Below are positions 6,255-64,000 of a stretch of 64,000 bases of DNA, piece after piece (the stretch's first letter is position 1; each line of letters opens with the position of its first letter). The position numbers and the translations under genes were made by a program. The stretch lies in the NCBI GenBank assembly GCA_000146465.1, contig CP001945.1; one strand, 5' to 3'. The notes under the pieces are model-generated. The model was not told the origin of the DNA. It made no database searches and saw only the letters and a list, made by a program, of their open reading frames with translations.

Positions 6255-7223
6255 ATGCTTCTACTTCTTACAATTGTTGGAATAGTGGTCTGCAGGGAAA
6301 ATGCAGTGATTCTGATTCTCTGTAGGAACAGCGACAAGAATGGCATAACAGAAACGATAAAGAATTTCGAAGAGGTGTTCAATAGAAACTTCGGATATCC
6401 TTATGTATTTCTGAACGATGAGGAGTTTACCGAGGACTTCAAGAAAGCTATAAAGGATGTTACATCTAATAGTGTTGAGTTTGGAAGACTCGAGCCCGAG
6501 GAGTGGGAGATTCCAAAGTGGATAGATATGGAGAAGGCAAAGGAGGAAATGAAGAAAATGGAAGACAGGAAAATCATCTATGGAGGGTCTCTATCATACA
6601 GGAAGATGTGCAGGTTCTTTTCTGGATTCTTCTACAGGAACAAGCTTGTCCAGAAGTATGACTATTATTGGAGGATAGAGCCAGATGTAAAGTTCCTGTG
6701 CCAGATAGAGTATGATCCGTTCACATATCTTCGGGAGAACAACAAACAGTATGGGTTTGTGATATCCTTGGTTGAGTTTATGGAGACGATTCCCAGTCTG
6801 TTTGGAGAGGTGATAAAGTTTGCAACACATAACCTGAACTTGATCAAAAAGGCCAATGGAAATAGATTCATACTAAACAAGGACGGGTCATACAACGGAT
6901 GTCATTTTTGGTCCAACTTTGAAATAGCAAACTTTGGATTCTTTAGAAATGAAACATACCAGAAGTACTTTGATTGGTTAGACAAGGCTGGGGGGTTTTT
7001 CTACGAAAGATGGGGTGATGCGCCTGTGCACAGTATTGCAGCATCTCTCTTCCTGGATAAGGATCAGATCCACTTCTTCAGCGACATTGGGTATGAGCAT
7101 CCTCCATTCCAGCATTGTCCAAGAGAGGCGTCCATGAGATCGAAATGCAAGTGCAGTATTTCGAACTCGTTAGACTTTTCTCCAAATTCGTGTCTGGGCT
7201 TGTACATAAAGTCTCTTTTGTGA
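6255..7223 (+). CDS. Glycolipid/glycoprotein alpha-1,2-mannosyltransferase, KRE2/MNT1 (GT15) family, type II membrane protein
   Basis: N-terminal signal-anchor [15 protein letters not shown]15 motifs are conserved throughout, including [21 protein letters not shown] and [12 protein letters not shown]. Confidence 0.85.
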
Positions 7224-7303
7224 ATGAAGAATGCCTGGAAGTATATTCGATAATAATAAATTGGTACGACGGATATTTTGGTTTATTTTTGACCCGATAC
7301 GAG

Positions 7304-10078
7304 ATGGATTCTGAAAAGGAAGCTTTGAAGGAAAGGAAGAAAATGGAGAAGGAAGAGAAGAAGAGGCAGAAGCTGGAGAAATTCCTGGCAAAGAAAACAC
7401 AAGAAATGAATGTTTCCAAGCCAAGGAAGGAGTACAAGGGAGATGGCTATGACCCGCTAGGGATTGAAGGGAAGTGGTACGAGTTCTGGGAGAACAACGA
7501 GCTTTTCAAGCCTATAGAGGGAAAAGAGAAATATGTAATTCCGATTCCTCCGCCAAATGTCACAGGAAACCTTCATATAGGACATGCAATGATGGTTTCA
7601 ATTCAGGATACTTTGTGTAGATACAAGAGGATGTGCGGGTATGAGGTTTTGTATATTCCTGGGACAGACCATGCAGGAATAGCCACACAGAATGTTGTAT
7701 TGAAGCAATTGGAAAGAGAAGGAGTTGTCTCTGACAGAGAAGGGTTTCTTAAGAAGGCCTGGGAGTGGAAGGATAAGCATGGATCAAGAATATATGAGCA
7801 ATTTAAGAGATTAGGGACGAGTGTAGACTTCAGCAGGGAAAGATTTACCCTAGATCCAGGGATGAACGAAGCTGTTGTTGATGCGTTTGTAAAGCTCTAT
7901 GAAAGAGGCCTTATATATCGAGAGCTGAAAATTGTGAACTGGTGTGCCAAGCTGTCGACAACCATAAGTGACTTGGAGGTTAATCACGAAGAGGTGATGG
8001 CCAGCACAGATCTACAAGTAGATGGAGGAAAGTATGAGTTTGGGGTAATTTATCATTTTAAGTATCCCATGACAATAGATAAGGAATTTTCAGGAGATTA
8101 TCTTTCGCTACCGGCAATTGAAGTGGCAACAACAAGACCGGAAACGATTCTTGGAGACACGGCGATATGTGTGAATGGAAAGGACGAAAGATTTGGAGCC
8201 AGAGGAATAAAGGAGACTTTTGGGGATGTTCCTGAAGGAAGCAAGCTCTATTGTGTAAATCCGTTGACCAGTGAGGTGATTCCTGTTGTCTTTGACGACT
8301 ATGCAGATATGAGCTTTGGAACTGGAGTGGTGAAAATAACACCTGCACATGATGCAAATGACTTCGATGTATCGAGGAGACATGGACTTCCTTGCAAGAT
8401 TGTGTTTGATGAAGAAAACAGGGTAATCATTGAGGGAGAGTTCAAGGGGCTAAAGAGATTTGAGGCAAGAAAAGCTGTTATTTCAAAGCTTACAGACATT
8501 GGCTTGTTTGTTGGAAAGAAGGAGTATCCTCAGGTGATTCCAAGATGTTCCCGATCTAATGACATTATAGAGCCTATTGTCAAGAGTCAATGGTGGATGG
8601 ACTGTAAGGAAATGGCAAATAAGGCTATTGAGGCAGTTAAAGAAGGAAGAATAAGAATACTACCTGAAGGGGCAGAAAGGCGATGGTATAAATGGCTTGA
8701 GAATATCAGGGACTGGTGTCTATCGAGGCAACTGTGGTGGGGGCATCGAATACCTGCATACAGAATGCCTTCTGGAAAATGGTATGTTGGAAGAAGCAAG
8801 GAAGAAGCATTTTTGAAGATGAAGAATGAGTGTCCTGAGGATGGATGTAGTATTGATGAGTTTGAGCAGGACGAGGATGTTCTAGACACATGGTTTTCTT
8901 CGGGCCTATGGCCGTTTGCCATTCTAGGATGGCCCAAAGAGACAGAAGACCTTCAAAAGTACTATCCTAGCACCTTGCTTGAAACAGGCAGCGACATTCT
9001 CTTCTTCTGGGTGGCGAGAATGGTGATGCTTGGAATTGAACTGACCGGAAAAGAGCCTTTCAGCCAAGTGTTTCTCCATGGGATAGTAAGAGATGCACAT
9101 GGAAGGAAGATGAGCAAAAGCCTTGGGAATGTCATTGACCCGATTTTTGTGATTGATGGATGTCCTCTTTCAAAGCTGATTTCGACAATGAGAAGCGGGA
9201 ATCTCGATGAGAGGGAGATGAAGAGGGCAGAAGAAGTCCTACGAAAGGATTTCCCAAACGGAATACCAAGGTGCGGGGCAGATGCTCTTAGATTTACTTT
9301 ACTTTCCTACACCTCTGGAATGAAGGATATCAACCTTGATGTACTGAGGGTGGAAGGATATCGAAGGTTTTGCAACAAAATATGGAATGCTCATAGATTT
9401 GTGAAGGCAGCAGTAGATGAGGCCATTGAAGAAAGCCTTAGAGGGTCCACTTGTAAGAAGAAATACGAGAAGTATATTCTTCCGGCTGATAAGCTACAGA
9501 TTCGTTCTGGAGAAGGACCCGTTGAATGGATTCTTAAAAAAAGGAACGAGTTAATAGAAATAAGCCAGAGAATGATTGATTCATTCAACTTCATGGGAGC
9601 CACACAAGCAATCCATCAGTTTTTTATTTACGATCTGTGTGATGTCTTCATAGAGGTTGTTAAGAAAAACAAGAGCGAAAGATACATAGGGGTACTATTA
9701 AGCGTGTTTATCGATTCGATGAAGATACTCCATCCATTTATGCCATTTATCACAGAAGAGGTGTTTTCTGATTATTTCGATAGTTCTATTTCCACTTCAC
9801 CATATCCTAGGACAGATGGGTCTAACCATGAAAACAAGTTTTCTGGGACACTTCAAATTATAAGGCATGTAAGGGCAAAGGCAGAGTCAAAGGGATGGCC
9901 TAGGGTTGCAGTAGGGATTGCCCCAGGAGAAGATGTTGACCTTGCAGACCTGGAGTTTGTCCGTCTGCTTTGCAAAAAAATTATCGAATTTAAGGTAGTA
10001 GAACATTCAGAAAGCTCAGAAAGCCATCTGTATGAGAAGGTAGGGGATTCTGGAGTATTTGTGAGCCAAGCAGATTGA
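7304..10078 (+). CDS. VAS1: Valyl-tRNA synthetase (class I aaRS) with a Lys/Glu-rich N-terminal extension
   Basis: [14 protein letters not shown] (HIGH), [12 protein letters not shown] (KMSKS), and editing and anticodon-binding regions conserved with ValRS. The ORF-track ORF starts at 7115, but the conserved protein begins at the ATG at 7304 ([13 protein letters not shown]...). Confidence 0.9.
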
Positions 10079-10902: not shown

Positions 10903-11900
10903 ATGATAACTATCAAAGAGGCCTTGAACCAAGCTATAGATGAAGAGATGGAAATGGATAAGAGAGTGTTTGTTCTTGGGGAGGAGGTGGGCATATCTGG
11001 AGGAAACAAAGGAGTCACTAGAGGTCTATACGAGAAGTATGGAAAGTGGAGAGTTCTTGATACACCCATCAGTGAAATGGGATTCACAGGCCTGGGTGTG
11101 GGGCATCCTATCTAGGCCTAAGGCCGATAATTGAGTTTATGACATGGAACTTTGCATTGCAGTCTATTGACCATATAATCAACTCGTGTGCCAAGACACT
11201 GTACATGTCTGGGGGGAAAGTTAGTTGCCCTATTGTATTTAGAGGGCCTAATGGATTCAATCCTGGATATGCAGCTCAACACACACAAGACTTCTGCAGC
11301 TACTATGGTGCAGTCCCCGGTCTTAAGGTTGTCGCTCCCTTCACAGCAAAGGATCATAAAGGATTACTGAAATCGGCGATCCGAGATAACAATCCAGTGG
11401 TATTTTTGGAAAATGAGACGCTTTACGATGATACATATAAGGACATAGAACAGGGATACATGCAATCACTAGATAAAGCTGTGATCGAAGTAGAAGGGTG
11501 CGACGTCACTCTTGTAGGAATTTCACTTTCAGTAAAGACATGTCTGGAGGCTGCTAAGGCACTGAAAGATCTAGGGATTTCTTGTGAAGTTATCAACCTC
11601 GTGTCGATCAAGCCCATAGATAAACAAACATTATTGACCTCTGCCAAGAAGACAAAGCATGTGTTTGTAATTGATTTTGCATGGCCATCGTTCAGTGTTG
11701 CTTCCGAGATTTCTGCAATAATACACGAGAACTGCTTTAAAGATTTGATGGCTTCTGTTCAAAGAATAAACGCAAAAGACATTCCTACTCCCTACTCAGA
11801 GAAAATAGAAGCAATGGCGTTTCCAACATGTACAGATGTCATTGATTCGGTGGTTGAAGTCTATAAAAGCACCTCCAAAGATAATAAATTAGGTCTTTAA
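10903..11900 (+). CDS. PDB1: Pyruvate dehydrogenase E1 component beta subunit. The reading frame is interrupted by a 1-nt indel in a G4 run (11100-11103), splitting it into ORFs 10903..11115 and 11139..11900
   Basis: [16 protein letters not shown]...VFVLGEEVG...[27 protein letters not shown] in frame 1 continues as [38 protein letters not shown] in the -1 frame. Together they are colinear with PDHB (…[20 protein letters not shown]…). The rest of the transketolase C-terminal domain is intact. Confidence 0.8.
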
Positions 11901-12332: not shown

Positions 12333-12917
12333 TTAGGGGCCATGAGTTTTAATTATCCCTTTTGAAGCCATGTATGCAGCTAGGCTCCTACTCGCAATTC
12401 CCCTATGGCTTATCCTGTTTTTCTCGTCAGTTGGCATATTTTTTAGGACACCATTAAATCCATCGGGAATGAAAATATACCCAAATTCTGTTTTGCAATC
12501 TTTCTCTGGCTCTGTGATAGAGCCCTTCAGTTTCCCTGAAAACACCTTCTTGACTATTTCTCCATTTTCATAATGGGCAATTCCCAAGCTACAGACTGCT
12601 GTGGCGCTTTTATTCCCTATCTTCTCTACAATCTCCCAAATCTTCCGGGTGCCTATTTCGAGAAAATCCTTCACATAGACACCGGGAAATCCTCCTAAGG
12701 CTTCAAGAGAAAACGAAGTGTCGTCAACTATCACTGCATCCTTTGGGTTTATAAAGGGCGCCGCTTGATCCAGTTTGTGTTCTACAATCTTTTCTGAAGG
12801 CCCTTGGATTTCGGTCATTGAAATTCTCATGTGATCTATGTCTGTCTTGAGGAACTCTTTAACCTCATTTAGTTTTTTCAAATTGGTTGTTGCAAAATAA
12901 ATTTTCCCCGTGGTCAT
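12333..12917 (-). CDS. HAM1: Inosine triphosphate pyrophosphatase (Ham1/ITPA family)
   Basis: Ham1 signatures FATTNLKKLNEV, VDDTSFSLEALGGFPG and ISHRG. Confidence 0.85.
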   Translation of the reverse strand: MTTGKIYFATTNLKKLNEVKEFLKTDIDHMRISMTEIQGPSEKIVEHKLDQAAPFINPKDAVIVDDTSFSLEALGGFPGVYVKDFLEIGTRKIWEIVEKIGNKSATAVCSLGIAHYENGEIVKKVFSGKLKGSITEPEKDCKTEFGYIFIPDGFNGVLKNMPTDEKNRISHRGIASRSLAAYMASKGIIKTHGP

Positions 12918-36043: not shown

Positions 36044-39000
36044 CTAGACTTTATTATTAAAGAAGTCTACATTGTATATAAGATCGAAAGAGTTTGTCCC
36101 GCATTTCACGGGATTTCCCACAGTTATGGAGGCAGAGGGATTAGACAATTGATCTTCAAGGTGGAATGCTGCAGCTGTTTTGAAGTTGGAGTAGCAGCTT
36201 TCGAAACTCATTTTCTGGATAAGAGAGTCGCCAATTCCAAGTCCATGCCTACTGAAGGGAGAGTAGTCGCCTTTTCTTGTCATATAGTCAGCTACAAGAA
36301 GAAGATGCCGAGCATCAATTGAAATTCCATAGACATCGAAAACCTTCACTACTTCGTTGATTATAGCATGTCTTGCAGCCTCAATCCCAAGCGTTAGATA
36401 CACATTGTATATATCATTAGACTCGGAATTGTAGATATCTAAGAGATCTAGTAGATCCTCATAGACACCGGGAGCCACCTCTATCCTTCCTGTCAAAGAG
36501 GAGATGGAAGGGCTTTCTACAAAGAGAGTATTTCCGGAGATCGAGGCCTTTTTTATGCCTTTGGTTTCTCTCACCACAACTGTAGGAAGGATAGATTCGA
36601 TTATTGAGGATATCACTTCGTTAAATCCAGAAGGATACAGCATCTCAAATGAAAGTATGTTTTTTGACTTCCTTGTAAAGTTTATGAGATTCTCCTCTTC
36701 AGTACTGCTTGAGTTATCGGTATGGTCAATTTCGTCAATAGTCTCGGGATGAGTAGTATCATCACTGTCCTTTTCAGTGTTTTCATTCTCGCTGGTATCT
36801 ACACATATATAGTCACTCTTTGAATTACTTTCCTCATCACTGTCACTCTCATCCTCTTCCTCGTTTTCTTTGTTTTCATCTAGTTCCTTTGAACTATCTT
36901 TATTTCCCTCTTCCATTCCTAACTTATATTTTACTTTAGATAGCATTTTCAGTTTACTTCCAAGTATCTTCAGGAACTTTCGGTCCAAAGCCTCGCTTGC
37001 AAGGTCCACAAAGTTGTCCAGGTCAAACACCATTCTAATTTTCTTCTGAAAGACCCCGTCAATCATCACAATTTCCTCAGAGACCCTAAATTTCCTGACA
37101 CAATCTTTCAGTGTTATCTTCTTTAAGCATGTACCAATATCAAAATTCAACTTTTTCCTGATAGGAATAGTAACCAAAGGCGTCTTTATGGACTTGGATG
37201 CTACCAATAGAATTTCTCTGAGCCTAGGAACTCCAAGAGTCACGTTCTTTTCTCCTACACCAGCTAGATGAAAGGTGTTGAGAGTCATCTGAGTGGAGGG
37301 TTCTCCTATCGACTGTGCAGCTATAATCCCGACAGATTCTCCTGGGTCGGCTAGAGAGCATACATACCTACTTTCCAGAAATCTCTTAAGCTCTTCGTCA
37401 AAAAACTCTATCTCTTTTTTGAACCGAGGAGACAAGAAATCTTCGTATCTGTTGCTAAGCTTGAAGGAAGACAAAGATAGCTCCTTAAAGAGAAAGGCAT
37501 TTCTTCGGAAAAACTCAGGATCGTCCAAATAGCTTGACTTCGTGCAGTCAAGGCCGTCCTCGCCATAAACAAACTGAACTATCTTTTTCCCAATCCGTGC
37601 CGATCTGTCATACTCAACCTTTATCCCCTCCATGTGCTTAACTAGGCATCTTTGTAGATATCCGGAATTGGCAGTTTTGATTGCAGTATCAATAAGCCCT
37701 TCTCTCCCTGCCATGCAATGGAAAAAATATTGTGATGGATTGATACCATCCAAAAAGCCTTGATATATGTACCCTCCAGAGGATGGATCAGGATCCAGCG
37801 GCTTGAAGCAAGGCAATGTCTTTCCACTAGCCATCACCGGGACTCTCCGTCCCTCCAGCTCTTGCTGTCCTAGAGCACCTGAAATCTGGCTCAGATTAAC
37901 AATCGAACCCTTGGATCCTATCGAAACAATCAATTCCATACCGTTGTCCGGAAAACCTTTCTTCAATCCTGAAGGAACGGATGCATTAACTATCTCTGAG
38001 GTTATCTTGTTCATTTCTCTTCTCATTATAGAGTCCAAGTAAGCTTTTTTGTCGTCGCATAAGTAAAAGTCTGGATTCGCTTCCATGTACTCCTTCTGAA
38101 GCTCCCTTACCTTCTTGTCTTTGGTTTCCATCACTTTTTTTCTTTTCGCATTCGCATCATTGCTAAGAATAAGATCATCTGCTCCTATTGTAAACCCATA
38201 CATTTGAAGATATTTGTTGCAAACTCTTCCTATATATGTTAGTAGGTCATTCGAGGCTGCAAACCCCCTAATCTCTCCGCAGGCATGGGCTAAGGACTTG
38301 AAAGTTGGCCCTATTGAGTTCTTGTCCAAAATCCCTGTAATTATATTCCCTTCACTAATTCTTAGAACGCTTTCTTCCGAATGCTCCCTCCATGCGTCTT
38401 TTGGAACCTTGGTTTCAATTTCAATATTTAAACCCAGCCCGAGGTTCTTTATTATTGCTGAGAGCACTTGCTTTCCAGAATAGAGTCTTACAGGCTTGAG
38501 AATACAGGGCTTATCTATGGTAATTCGTCTTCCATCCAATCCAGAATTCACTAGAGTAAAGTAATCTTCTTCGGAAAAGAACGAGTTTTTCATCGTCAAG
38601 ATTGCTGCAGCAACAATGTGATCTTGGGTAAGGCCTCTTATTGGTTTCCCGTCGGTGGGGACTAGATAGTTGAAGTCATTCATGACAATATGTCTAGCCT
38701 CGGCCTCAGCAACATAACTTTGTGGAAAATGAATGTTCATCTCATCTCCATCAAAGTCTGCGTTGTAAGATTTACAGTTGGCATAATGCATTCTTAATGT
38801 CCTTTCTCCTTTCAGCACCTTGCACTTATGAGCCATAATGCTTGGTCTATGTAAAGTCGGCTGTCTGTTCACAAGTACCACATCTCCATCCACCAAATGT
38901 CTCCAAACAACCTTCTTTCCATCCAGGAGCTGGTTTGCCAAGGCAAATCTCTTTTCGTCAGGCATGTGGCTTAAACTAAGCATTACATCTCCATCCTGTA

Positions 39001-40225
39001 GGTATAAACTTCCCGGATAGGTAGATCCATTCACAATAGCCTTTTTCAATTTGCTTACATTGAAGCTAGTTACTCTCTCTGGAAATGTCAGAACTTCCGC
39101 AAACACAAAAGGAACTCCTATCTCCCGTGTCTCTAGATTAGGGTCTGGGGATATGACAGTCCTCGCCGCGAAGTTAACTCTCTTTCCCATTATGTTTTTG
39201 CGGAACAGCCCTTCCTTCTTTTCAAGAATCTGCTTGTGTCCCGGTGGCGTTATCAAACCGATATTCCGTTTCCTTAGGTTTGAATTATCAAACGACGAAA
39301 GAACAGCACCTTGCAGCTCTGGCCAGTATGAAAGGTCTTTTTTCACCAATTCATTGATGGTGAGAATGTCGTTAAAGGAAAAAGTCTGAGGATTCGGGGC
39401 CTTCTTCTCATTTAAAAAAGACACCGGACGGAATCTATTGGGTGTGACAGGTATACTTGTCAAAAAGAACATATTCGGGTCTTTTGTAGAGAAGATGGAG
39501 CCAATCAAGTCGGCTTCATTGGAAAACAAATCTTCCACAAGCTCTCTAATAAAATCCGGGAAAAGCAGCTCCGAATCCTTTTCATTCTCACTATTTTCAT
39601 CATCCCTTTGGAGGGACTTTAATATCTTTATGTTTGTTCCTTTATAGATCTTTGGATTGGCATGTCCACATCTCACACATTTCTTTTTTGAATTTATACT
39701 AGAAAAGAAGTGGCGCACCATCTCCTGGTACTTATCTGTTGGAGGCCCAGGTCTGTTTTTCCTTGAGGATTCCACTCTCTTACTAACAACACTGTACAGC
39801 TCCTCTTCCTCCGAAGTAGCATACAGCTCATCCAAGCCGTCTATTTCTTCTCCATTTCTAAGAAGAGAGAACTTACAGAACATAATAAGCCGATCATAAT
39901 TTGTTATTCTAAAGTGCCTGCACTGGAAGCAACAACACCTAACTAATGAGAGCAGCGAGTCGAAGAATATCGGATTGAAAACAGGCTTAAATAGCTTTAT
40001 GCGTCCAAAATGTCCTGGGCAGTTTAGAAGCGACAAATTGCAGGTTTTACAGTTGGACGAGAAGTCTAATGGCCCCATTCTCAAGTCGTACAGGCCTCCA
40101 CGCACAGGATGCCCGAACTTGTCGAAAGTAGATGGCTCCGTAACATCCATGCAACTAGCCTGTTCTATTTCCTTTTCAGAGTATACTCCAAACGATATCT
40201 TCTTTGGATGAAATTTCATAACCAT
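36044..40225 (-). CDS. RPA190: DNA-directed RNA polymerase I largest subunit (A190/RPA1)
   Basis: Catalytic YNADFDGDEMNIHFPQSYVAEAEA ('HFPQ' is Pol I-specific, versus VPQ in Pol II/III). GLTQDHIVAAAILTMKNSFFSEEDY is Pol I-like. There is no CTD heptad, and an acidic expander-like insertion is present. The ORF-track N-terminal 50 aa (MGGIRTTQ…) are a read-through of the antisense tRNA-Met, so the start is set at MVMKFHPKK (40225). Confidence 0.85.
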   Translation of the reverse strand: MVMKFHPKKISFGVYSEKEIEQASCMDVTEPSTFDKFGHPVRGGLYDLRMGPLDFSSNCKTCNLSLLNCPGHFGRIKLFKPVFNPIFFDSLLSLVRCCCFQCRHFRITNYDRLIMFCKFSLLRNGEEIDGLDELYATSEEEELYSVVSKRVESSRKNRPGPPTDKYQEMVRHFFSSINSKKKCVRCGHANPKIYKGTNIKILKSLQRDDENSENEKDSELLFPDFIRELVEDLFSNEADLIGSIFSTKDPNMFFLTSIPVTPNRFRPVSFLNEKKAPNPQTFSFNDILTINELVKKDLSYWPELQGAVLSSFDNSNLRKRNIGLITPPGHKQILEKKEGLFRKNIMGKRVNFAARTVISPDPNLETREIGVPFVFAEVLTFPERVTSFNVSKLKKAIVNGSTYPGSLYLQDGDVMLSLSHMPDEKRFALANQLLDGKKVVWRHLVDGDVVLVNRQPTLHRPSIMAHKCKVLKGERTLRMHYANCKSYNADFDGDEMNIHFPQSYVAEAEARHIVMNDFNYLVPTDGKPIRGLTQDHIVAAAILTMKNSFFSEEDYFTLVNSGLDGRRITIDKPCILKPVRLYSGKQVLSAIIKNLGLGLNIEIETKVPKDAWREHSEESVLRISEGNIITGILDKNSIGPTFKSLAHACGEIRGFAASNDLLTYIGRVCNKYLQMYGFTIGADDLILSNDANAKRKKVMETKDKKVRELQKEYMEANPDFYLCDDKKAYLDSIMRREMNKITSEIVNASVPSGLKKGFPDNGMELIVSIGSKGSIVNLSQISGALGQQELEGRRVPVMASGKTLPCFKPLDPDPSSGGYIYQGFLDGINPSQYFFHCMAGREGLIDTAIKTANSGYLQRCLVKHMEGIKVEYDRSARIGKKIVQFVYGEDGLDCTKSSYLDDPEFFRRNAFLFKELSLSSFKLSNRYEDFLSPRFKKEIEFFDEELKRFLESRYVCSLADPGESVGIIAAQSIGEPSTQMTLNTFHLAGVGEKNVTLGVPRLREILLVASKSIKTPLVTIPIRKKLNFDIGTCLKKITLKDCVRKFRVSEEIVMIDGVFQKKIRMVFDLDNFVDLASEALDRKFLKILGSKLKMLSKVKYKLGMEEGNKDSSKELDENKENEEEDESDSDEESNSKSDYICVDTSENENTEKDSDDTTHPETIDEIDHTDNSSSTEEENLINFTRKSKNILSFEMLYPSGFNEVISSIIESILPTVVVRETKGIKKASISGNTLFVESPSISSLTGRIEVAPGVYEDLLDLLDIYNSESNDIYNVYLTLGIEAARHAIINEVVKVFDVYGISIDARHLLLVADYMTRKGDYSPFSRHGLGIGDSLIQKMSFESCYSNFKTAAAFHLEDQLSNPSASITVGNPVKCGTNSFDLIYNVDFFNNKV

Positions 40226-40307
40226 TTTGAAGAAGGGTCGTTTTGAGAATGAAATTGAAAATGCAGATAATCCTAGGGAGATGCCGATCTTGATAGGCCA
40301 TCTTAAA

Positions 40308-40380
40308 GCATGGTGGCGCAATGGAAGCGCGCTGGGCTCATAACCCAGAGGTTGTGTGGTTCGAATCCCACCCATGCTAG
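40308..40380 (+). tRNA. tRNA-Met (anticodon CAT), initiator-like
   Basis: AGCATGG acceptor 5' arm pairs perfectly with CCATGCT plus discriminator A (A1:U72). D arm GCGC/GCGC. Anticodon stem CTGGG/CCCAG with loop CTCATAA. T-loop GGTTCGAATCC. Overall close to eukaryotic tRNAi-Met, but the T-stem pairs imperfectly by hand folding. Confidence 0.7.
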
Positions 40381-42363: not shown

Positions 42364-42435
42364 GGCTCGGTGGTCTAAGGGTATGATCTCCGCTTTGGGT
42401 GCGGAGGGCTCCAGGTTCAAATCCTGGCCGAGCCC
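42364..42435 (+). tRNA. tRNA-Pro (anticodon TGG)
   Basis: GGCTCGGTGGTCTAAGGGTATGATCTCCGCTTTGGGTGCGGAGGGCTCCAGGTTCAAATCCTGGCCGAGCCC. A canonical 72-nt cloverleaf, near-identical in architecture to eukaryotic tRNA-Pro. Anticodon loop TTTGGGT. Confidence 0.85.
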
Positions 42436-62406: not shown

Positions 62407-62589
62407 TAACGGGCGTGATATTTAAAAATTTATCATTTTCTAGGCATTACGGTTTCAGGCCTCATTTCTACTTAGCATTTATCCCCAGAAAGCGGAAATT
62501 AATTCGGTGTACATACGAAGCGAAATGTTTCTCGAACAATAGTTAAGCCTTCTTTGTAGGATTGAAAAATATGTCTTCTAGATGCCCTT

Positions 62590-64000
62590 ATGATAAAAAA
62601 GATCATTCACAGACCAAAGAAACCGCTTTTTGTGTTTAGAAGGGAGGAGTCTTTGCTCTATGGGCCTAGAGTCAAGAGTGCACCACCAATTGAAATCAAC
62701 TTTGAAACACCCACCAGGGTCGAGCCAAAGCCTGCAGCAAGATTTACAAGACCTGATGGAACACCTATAAGAGAAGAGGATTTGATAGATTCGACAGATA
62801 GTGATGCATCAAGTGAGAGTTCGGTAGAGGCTGAAAATAAGATTGAAGACGTACCACCGGAGACAAATGCAAACGCTGAAATTCATGAAGAGGAAGAAGT
62901 GGAATGCAAAGAAGAAAAGCCAATACAAAAAGATGATAGACCCAGTCTCGAGGATAGAGCATTAATGCTGAATAATCTTTTGAAGAGATTTTCGGAACAA
63001 AGAATCACAGAAAGACGAGGGCCCTGCTATAAGATTGATGAGATTCTTAATACAAAAGAAAGAACAGCAATTCCTCTTGAGCTGAAAATAAGGATTAGAA
63101 GGGAACTGAAAGGAGTATATAGGCCAGACAGCAGCCGAAAGGACACGTGCATTGAACAAGCAAGGCTTGAGTTCAATAGGCTTACAGCCAAGAACATAGG
63201 CCTCGTGATAAAGAATCTTAAGAGCATTCGTGTTGGAACCATCGAAGAGATGAAGGAAGTGTCAAATATTTTATTCGATAAGGCGATTTCCGAGCCTACG
63301 TTTGTAAAGTATTATGCATTAGTGGTTCTCGATCTGAAGAAGGAATGGCAATCAGAGGAGGAGAAGAGTAGAGATGTAAGCCAAACTGTGTTCTTTGGGA
63401 CACTTCTTACTTTGACATTGAAGACTCTCGAGAATAAAGAAAGATGGGGAGATGAGTATAAGAAGAAAAAGGATATGACATTTGAAGAAAGAATAGCCTA
63501 CGAAGAAAAGCTTGAAGAGGCAGAAACAGAAAGATATATAAAGAAAAGGAGAACGCTTGGAACAATCGACTTTCTATCGTCTCTCTACTCCTTGAATGTA
63601 ATAAGCTACGTGCACATGAACGCTTGTATCAATACACTTATGAAATCTGATGACCCAGAAAATATCGAGGTGTTATGCTATTTGATCGATAACATAGGCG
63701 AAAAACTTGTTGTTAGTGGAAAGGAGCACATTATATCGATGATATGTTCCAGCCTTGTACAAAAGAAAAGCAACTATACAAATAGAATTAGATACATGAT
63801 AGAAAGTCTTCTTGACAAGAAGAATTCTTGGAAGTCAAAGGAATTGAAAGCTGTAAATGTGTTCTCCTGTCTAGAAGTCGAAAACGACTATGGAAACACT
63901 CAAGACCCAGAATCTCAAGAACCACACAAAGAAGACGTACTTCCATTTTTAGCATCTTTGTCCGAAGAACTATCGATGGCATACGAGGACGATGACAAAG
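62590..64000 (+). CDS. eIF4G-like MIF4G-domain protein (translation initiation factor 4G); 3' end beyond the window
   Basis: Open frame from the ATG at 62590 to the window end, so it is absent from the ORF track. MIF4G helices …NILFDKAISEPTFVKYYALVVLDLKK…VFFGTLLTLTLK…TLGTIDFLSSLYSLNVISYVHMNACINTLM. An acidic N-terminus and a YKIDEIL motif upstream. Confidence 0.6.
   Translation, partial: MIKKIIHRPKKPLFVFRREESLLYGPRVKSAPPIEINFETPTRVEPKPAARFTRPDGTPIREEDLIDSTDSDASSESSVEAENKIEDVPPETNANAEIHEEEEVECKEEKPIQKDDRPSLEDRALMLNNLLKRFSEQRITERRGPCYKIDEILNTKERTAIPLELKIRIRRELKGVYRPDSSRKDTCIEQARLEFNRLTAKNIGLVIKNLKSIRVGTIEEMKEVSNILFDKAISEPTFVKYYALVVLDLKKEWQSEEEKSRDVSQTVFFGTLLTLTLKTLENKERWGDEYKKKKDMTFEERIAYEEKLEEAETERYIKKRRTLGTIDFLSSLYSLNVISYVHMNACINTLMKSDDPENIEVLCYLIDNIGEKLVVSGKEHIISMICSSLVQKKSNYTNRIRYMIESLLDKKNSWKSKELKAVNVFSCLEVENDYGNTQDPESQEPHKEDVLPFLASLSEELSMAYEDDDK

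Follow-up and report, generated by a model that had tools for sequence, protein, structure and literature searches.

A one-base deletion splits the pyruvate dehydrogenase E1-beta gene of Encephalitozoon intestinalis, a candidate young unitary pseudogene

In the microsporidian Encephalitozoon intestinalis, the gene for the beta subunit of pyruvate dehydrogenase E1 (PDHB) is divided into two overlapping pieces by the lack of a single base in a short G run. The lesion is present in independent assemblies and isolates, the orthologues of related species are intact, the homopolymer in which the shift falls is specific to the E. intestinalis lineage, and the remainder of the gene carries no further damage. 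Taken together, these sequence comparisons suggest, with a probability that we put at roughly 0.7, that this relic-enzyme locus is a young unitary pseudogene, created by a recent and apparently fixed loss-of-function deletion. The stretch of DNA that we analysed, 64,000 nt in length and referred to throughout as the window, had been annotated beforehand from its letters alone. That preliminary description was right about the microsporidian origin of the DNA and about the nature of the lesion, and it listed three explanations (a homopolymer sequencing or assembly error, recent pseudogenisation and, as a less likely option, programmed frameshifting) without committing itself to any of them.

Results

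Read directly, positions 11089-11115 run GGC CTG GGT GTG GGG CAT CCT ATC TAG, and the open reading frame that starts at ATG 10903 is 70 aa long with GLGVGHPI as its C-terminus. No single uninterrupted frame covers the whole subunit; the frame switches on the G run and the upstream frame stops soon afterwards (Table 1). The downstream frame is displaced by -1 relative to the upstream frame, and insertion of one G restores a protein of 332 aa in which the sole stop is the terminal one at 11898-11900. The match to the Pfam profile Transket_pyr is split accordingly between the upstream piece and the downstream frame (11103-11897), scoring 47.3 and 66.7 bits against a cut-off of 27, with Transketolase_C adding 117.3 bits (cut-off 25.9) and all parts in the correct order. 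When the intact PDHB of E. hellem was used as a tblastn query, exactly two HSPs were returned, which meet on the G run (query 1-67 in frame 1, 10903-11103; query 67-326 in frame 3, 11100-11879). Direct reading, open reading frames, Pfam and tblastn thus all confirm the split, and with it the direction of the shift, that had been described at the outset.

Table 1. Features of the split PDHB gene and its surroundings, in window coordinates.
Feature	Position	Strand	Remarks
Upstream PDHB frame (frame 1)	10903..11115	+	67 genuine PDHB residues, then out-of-frame H-P-I and TAG; Transket_pyr 3-66, E=2.3e-12
GGGG run, one G short of the orthologue frame	11100..11103	+	G5 (GTG GGG GCA) if intact
Premature TAG of the upstream frame	11113..11115	+	Three codons past the shift
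Downstream PDHB frame (frame 3)	11103..11900	+	Residues 68-332 (...KLGL) and stop; Transket_pyr 71-172, whole Transketolase_C 2-124
ATG-initiated ORF of 253 aa	11139..11900	+	Publicly annotated as 'pyruvate dehydrogenase subunit beta' (ADM11403 and three KAL73 records)
Small local hairpin (TATC..GGCC TAA GGCC GATA)	11109..11129	+	Begins 5 nt past the G run; not significant (z=-0.54)

The repaired protein aligns with human PDHB (3exe_B) at E=1.5e-98 over query residues 2-317 and chain residues 3-323, and the junction is free of gaps. Counting along 3exe_B, E58 in the motif TPISEMGF corresponds to human Glu59-beta, the glutamate that activates ThDP. This residue is present and falls within the 70-aa piece; the idea that the catalytic glutamate sits in the lost segment (PIIEF) is wrong, since the count along the human chain places Glu59 in TPISEMGF. 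A spliceosomal intron can likewise be set aside: the alignment shows no insertion at the junction, and repair of the frame needs one base to be added, which splicing cannot do, whereas the alternative of removing two bases, or any 3n+2, would cost the protein conserved residues.

The preliminary description had called for a comparison with orthologues in sister genomes. In this comparison, PDHB proved to be uninterrupted at the DNA level in five relatives (E. hellem, an E. romaleae-like organism, another Encephalitozoon, E. cuniculi EcunIII-L and Ordospora colligata), which have the gene order ValRS, TMEM33, PDHB, eIF-1A in common. Identity to the repaired protein amounts to 81% for E. hellem, 82% for the E. 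romaleae-like Logan contig and 75-77% for Ordospora. The proteins of E. hellem (326 aa), E. romaleae (327 aa) and O. colligata (325 aa) share the Transket_pyr plus Transketolase_C architecture and the genomic neighbourhood with E. intestinalis, but in the other Encephalitozoon and Ordospora the gene is a single open reading frame, the one-base deletion being confined to E. intestinalis. The relatives read GTC GGA/GGG/GGC GCC/GCA or ATA GGT GCT at the shift site, and GTG GGG (G)CA is found only in E. intestinalis among the loci compared. The other microsporidia recovered by protein search also have an intact PDHB, which makes its loss unusual.

At first sight, the frameshift might seem to be shared with E. 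cuniculi EcunIII-L, where the PDHB entry (254 aa, P0021) has the same truncated N-terminus and starts with MTWNF. Unlike that of E. intestinalis, however, the DNA reads straight through, continuing in frame 0 from MVTVREALNQ without interruption, so that the 254-aa model is an annotation artefact. The locus on LFTZ01000004.1 (L002:1264-2265) encodes a PDHB of 333 aa; the deposited model is too short and should be extended. We also note that the Encephalitozoon sequences in two Logan runs, SRR21633403 and SRR23946965, have no exact match to named proteins. PDHB from the former (L007:3201-4235) is 81% identical to that of E. cuniculi and has the same ...NKSNL tail, its 344-aa model being called from a GTG that is probably too early a start; the latter (L006) clusters at 90% with E. 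romaleae SJ-2008 without being identical to it.

How far has the rest of the gene decayed? Between species, synonymous sites have reached saturation (pS 0.58-0.83, with a pairwise omega of about 0.05), and dN/dS dating was therefore dropped in favour of lineage-unique changes and the retention of conserved sites. E. intestinalis PDHB has 13 unique amino acid changes as against 8-9 on comparable branches. Conservative replacements (V>I, R>K, I>V, Y>F) account for nearly all of them, and relative to the flanking genes there is no significant excess (Fisher p=0.70). Across 117 family members, 65 columns are conserved at 95% or more, and 64 of these are kept in E. intestinalis, the exception being L>I; retention is equal to that seen in intact orthologues. 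The only stop in the repaired frame is the terminal one, and the original observation that the gene is otherwise without lesions stands. Neither an excess of changes nor a radical change was detected in PDHB that would indicate relaxed constraint. From the conserved sites and the lack of any new stop, a Poisson calculation sets an upper bound of about 0.02-0.03 substitutions per site on neutral drift after the deletion, with joint P falling from 0.083 at 0.02 to 0.016 at 0.03. The synonymous divergence that separates this lineage from its sisters is greater than 1, which makes the interval a small part of its history. A gene as pristine as this could have died very recently or could still be under selection and, because there is no sign of decay, the pseudogene reading fits only if drift after the deletion has stayed below this bound.

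There is one scenario in which selection might have continued despite a real deletion: the gene could still be used, with a minority of ribosomes slipping by -1 through re-pairing of tRNA-Gly, or with RNA polymerase occasionally adding a G, so that low-level full-length E1-beta keeps the gene under selection. Imagine a tRNA-Gly on GGG at 11101-11103. It would re-pair perfectly with GGG at 11100-11102, the next codon would then be GCA, and the colinear product would carry exactly the ancestral GVGASYL. This scenario would sit well with a gene that is otherwise pristine, a small hairpin does begin just past the G run, and compensated indels have been documented in the G7 tract of HSV TK and in poly(A) tracts of endosymbionts (PMC5009743). 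However, the sequence context is not that of a typical slippery site. The X_XXY_YYZ heptamer is absent; in the context GUG_GGG_CAU only the P-site tRNA-Gly can re-pair, as GCA offers no match for tRNA-His, which precludes tandem slippage. For the 97 nt that follow, the MFE of -19 is no better than that of shuffled sequences (-17.3 +/- 3.1; z=-0.54), and the core of the hairpin is largely a by-product of G-L-R-P codons. The shift, moreover, is conserved in none of the relatives, all of which are single-frame.

With regard to the hairpin, GGCCTAAGGCC (window 11115-11125) is a perfect palindrome that arises from these G-L-R-P codons (GGN CTN AGR CCN). Equivalent stems are found in E. hellem (GGTCTAAGACC) and at the E. 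romaleae-like locus (GGCCTTAGGCC), which marks the palindrome as a coding by-product that might be mistaken for a frameshift stimulator.

Programmed -1 frameshifting, the third option of the preliminary description, is thus rejected for want of a heptamer, a significant structure and conservation, leaving from that option a single-tRNA -1 slip on G_GGG. Transcriptional slippage has been documented at G7 or at A/T runs of 9 or more (PMC5009743); compared with these tracts a run of only four G is far too short. We found no literature that links Encephalitozoon with recoding. All in all, we consider it unlikely that the gene is still in use by way of slippage at the ribosome or the polymerase. 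HSV thymidine kinase (G7 +/-1) and the poly(A) genes of Buchnera and Blochmannia likewise carry a homopolymer indel in a small genome, with the gene intact apart from that, and there too a slip restores the exact product. Unlike these, PDHB has a run of only four G and lacks a stimulatory element and conservation. There is perhaps a small chance that a fixed deletion in a nuclear gene of an extremely reduced eukaryotic genome is bridged by constitutive low-level -1 P-site slippage or polymerase stuttering. By analogy, corrective frameshifting, known from mitochondria, endosymbionts and HSV TK, would then extend to a microsporidian nucleus and to an unusually short run and, if PDHB is expressed, this would be the first case of compensatory frameshifting in microsporidia.

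Other scenarios would place an intact G5 allele somewhere out of sight, and here the distribution of the G4 allele across assemblies and isolates is informative. The window is E. intestinalis DNA, identical base for base to the T2T assembly GCA_024399295.1 (CP075161.1) over the 6.2 kb compared, and the sole protein match at 100% is the 253-aa 'pyruvate dehydrogenase subunit beta' of E. intestinalis ATCC 50506. A Logan contig of 3292 bp from run ERR13302946 is also 100% identical to the window. The 70-aa product ending in GVGHPI can be encoded only by the GGGG allele, so that its records (UTX45094 from the T2T assembly, KAL7347901 from a second genome, and run ERR13302946) attest G4. The 253-aa model is on record as ADM11403 (2010 assembly), KAL7345961, KAL7347902 and KAL7349869, and the spacing of the three KAL73 accessions corresponds to one E. 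intestinalis proteome. Three more genomes, those of ATCC 50507 (New York 1994), 50603 (Georgia 1994) and 50651 (California 1993), were announced in 2025, each assembled de novo with SPAdes from 300-360x of Q30-filtered Illumina reads (PMC12697097), and we infer that the KAL73 accessions belong to these clinical isolates. Note that G4 is directly attested in the T2T assembly, in one further isolate and in the Logan run; in the 2010 assembly and two isolates it is deduced from the truncated 253-aa model, not from DNA.

Suppose that the G tract were polymorphic or heterozygous, with an intact G5 allele on the homologue or in part of the population and the commoner G4 in the consensus. Consensus assemblies mask minor alleles, homopolymers mutate both ways, and an undecayed gene is what we would expect if an intact copy were under selection. 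Yet all assemblies and the Logan contig have G4, where a 50:50 mixture should have given G5 in some of the assemblies, and no database protein is consistent with G5. A search across 5.8 billion proteins yielded no intact PDHB from E. intestinalis; its best full-length matches are 81-82% identical and come from other species. Heterozygosity in Encephalitozoon is, in addition, reported to be extremely low. The prospect that a G5 allele has been hidden in this way is accordingly slight.

If the true genome read GGGGG, the lesion would be a homopolymer sequencing or assembly error, the first option of the preliminary description. It does lie inside a homopolymer, in a gene that is otherwise perfect, and the window matches an assembly that was begun from Nanopore reads. 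However, the T2T genome of 2023 was polished with Illumina reads using Pilon (PMC10158259), and the 2010 genome, assembled with Velvet from Illumina GAIIx reads (PMC4355639), the three Illumina/SPAdes isolates and the unrelated read set of the Logan run all lead to the same truncated products. Nor is the window error-ridden in general: among 20 closely spaced ORFs checked with Pfam, no other split gene was detected, which also disposes of the idea that genes are split throughout the genome or that the assembly is poor. Illumina reads are not known to show a systematic error at runs of 4-5 nt. Agreement across platforms, assemblers and isolates effectively refutes an assembly error, which we regard as very improbable; the lesion is a property of the genome rather than of one assembly.

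It is just as hard to believe in two working polypeptides (70 aa, and 253 aa by reinitiation at ATG 11139) or in a new function for the 253-aa product: neither ORF is interrupted, the ATG is situated 23 nt past the stop and matches a conserved Met, and the 253-aa product features in public annotations, but about 12 residues (68-80) are absent from both ORFs, the 70-aa piece gains three foreign residues, and no relative is organised in this way. A structural model of E. hellem PDHB, with a pLDDT of 90.9, places the shift within helix 58-70, and the missing part is predicted to form the end of that helix and the whole of core strand 74-78, on which grounds we reject a functional split protein. 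With E58 located in the 70-aa piece, the 253-aa piece also lacks the ThDP-activating Glu.

Discussion

The alpha and beta subunits of PDH E1 are relic mitochondrial enzymes, which microsporidia are reported to keep without E2 and E3, and E. intestinalis has the smallest known nuclear genome. We favour recent pseudogenisation, the second of the three options listed beforehand and the best-supported reading of the locus, even though the gene shows neither relaxed constraint nor extra lesions. The following sequence of events might be envisaged. A synonymous change from GTC to GTG would first have turned codons of the GTC GGG GCA type into a G5 homopolymer, from which replication slippage may then have removed one G, a classic outcome of that process. 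Ribosomes would now terminate three codons later and release a 70-residue fragment, and the remaining 265 codons would be out of frame, with no efficient route to translation. The deletion would have to be very young, since decay has yet to show elsewhere in the gene.

In several respects the locus resembles young unitary pseudogenes of other reduced parasite genomes, which likewise combine a single homopolymer indel with intact sister orthologues, synteny and a relic enzyme of uncertain role. Unlike these, E. intestinalis PDHB bears no signature of relaxed constraint, and public records present it as a pair of protein-coding fragments, not as a pseudogene. Loss of PDH has a precedent within the group, as metchnikovellids lack the complex altogether (PMC5381614). 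As for the partner subunit, a tblastn search of the window with an approximate human PDHA1 query, rather than a microsporidian one, did not find E1-alpha.

If the gene is indeed dead, E. intestinalis would be a natural E1-beta knockout, implying that the enzyme is dispensable in an Encephalitozoon that infects humans, and genome reduction would have been caught in the act. E. hellem and E. cuniculi, both of which keep PDHB, would provide the other arm of a natural experiment. For annotation, we suggest that the locus be marked as a pseudogene or frameshifted gene instead of as 70-aa and 253-aa 'pyruvate dehydrogenase' proteins. This frameshift goes unremarked in the genome papers of 2010, 2023 and 2025 and in the scRNA-seq paper, although GenBank already displays the split in the form of two CDS fragments. 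The case adds a further instance of a well-known process; its interest is modest and lies chiefly with specialists in microsporidian metabolism and genome reduction.

Other features of the window

Between eIF-1A and an amino-acid transporter, all Encephalitozoon loci have a Ham1-like (ITPase) gene (window 12333-12917, - strand), and in Ordospora colligata the matching gap of 400 bp (L008/L009 4559-4962) has no gene call, which suggests that this gene may be present, or may have been lost, in a lineage-specific manner. The longest ORF for ValRS (7115-10078, + strand; TTG start, 987 aa) overlaps a Glyco_transf_15 mannosyltransferase ORF (6255-7223, + strand) by about 80-110 nt. In the T2T annotation ValRS has 924 aa, so that the true start lies inside the longest ORF. 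Further along, a tRNA-Met (CAT) gene at 40307-40379 (+ strand) covers the first 69 nt or so of a 1443-aa ORF at 36044-40375 (- strand), the true start of which probably lies further downstream. A tRNA-Pro (TGG) gene is located at 42364-42435. Finally, the stretch from 62.4 to 64 kb looks poor in ORFs because an ORF that crosses the edge is omitted from mechanical ORF lists; at 62566-64000 (+ strand) an ORF of at least 478 codons runs off the edge of the window.
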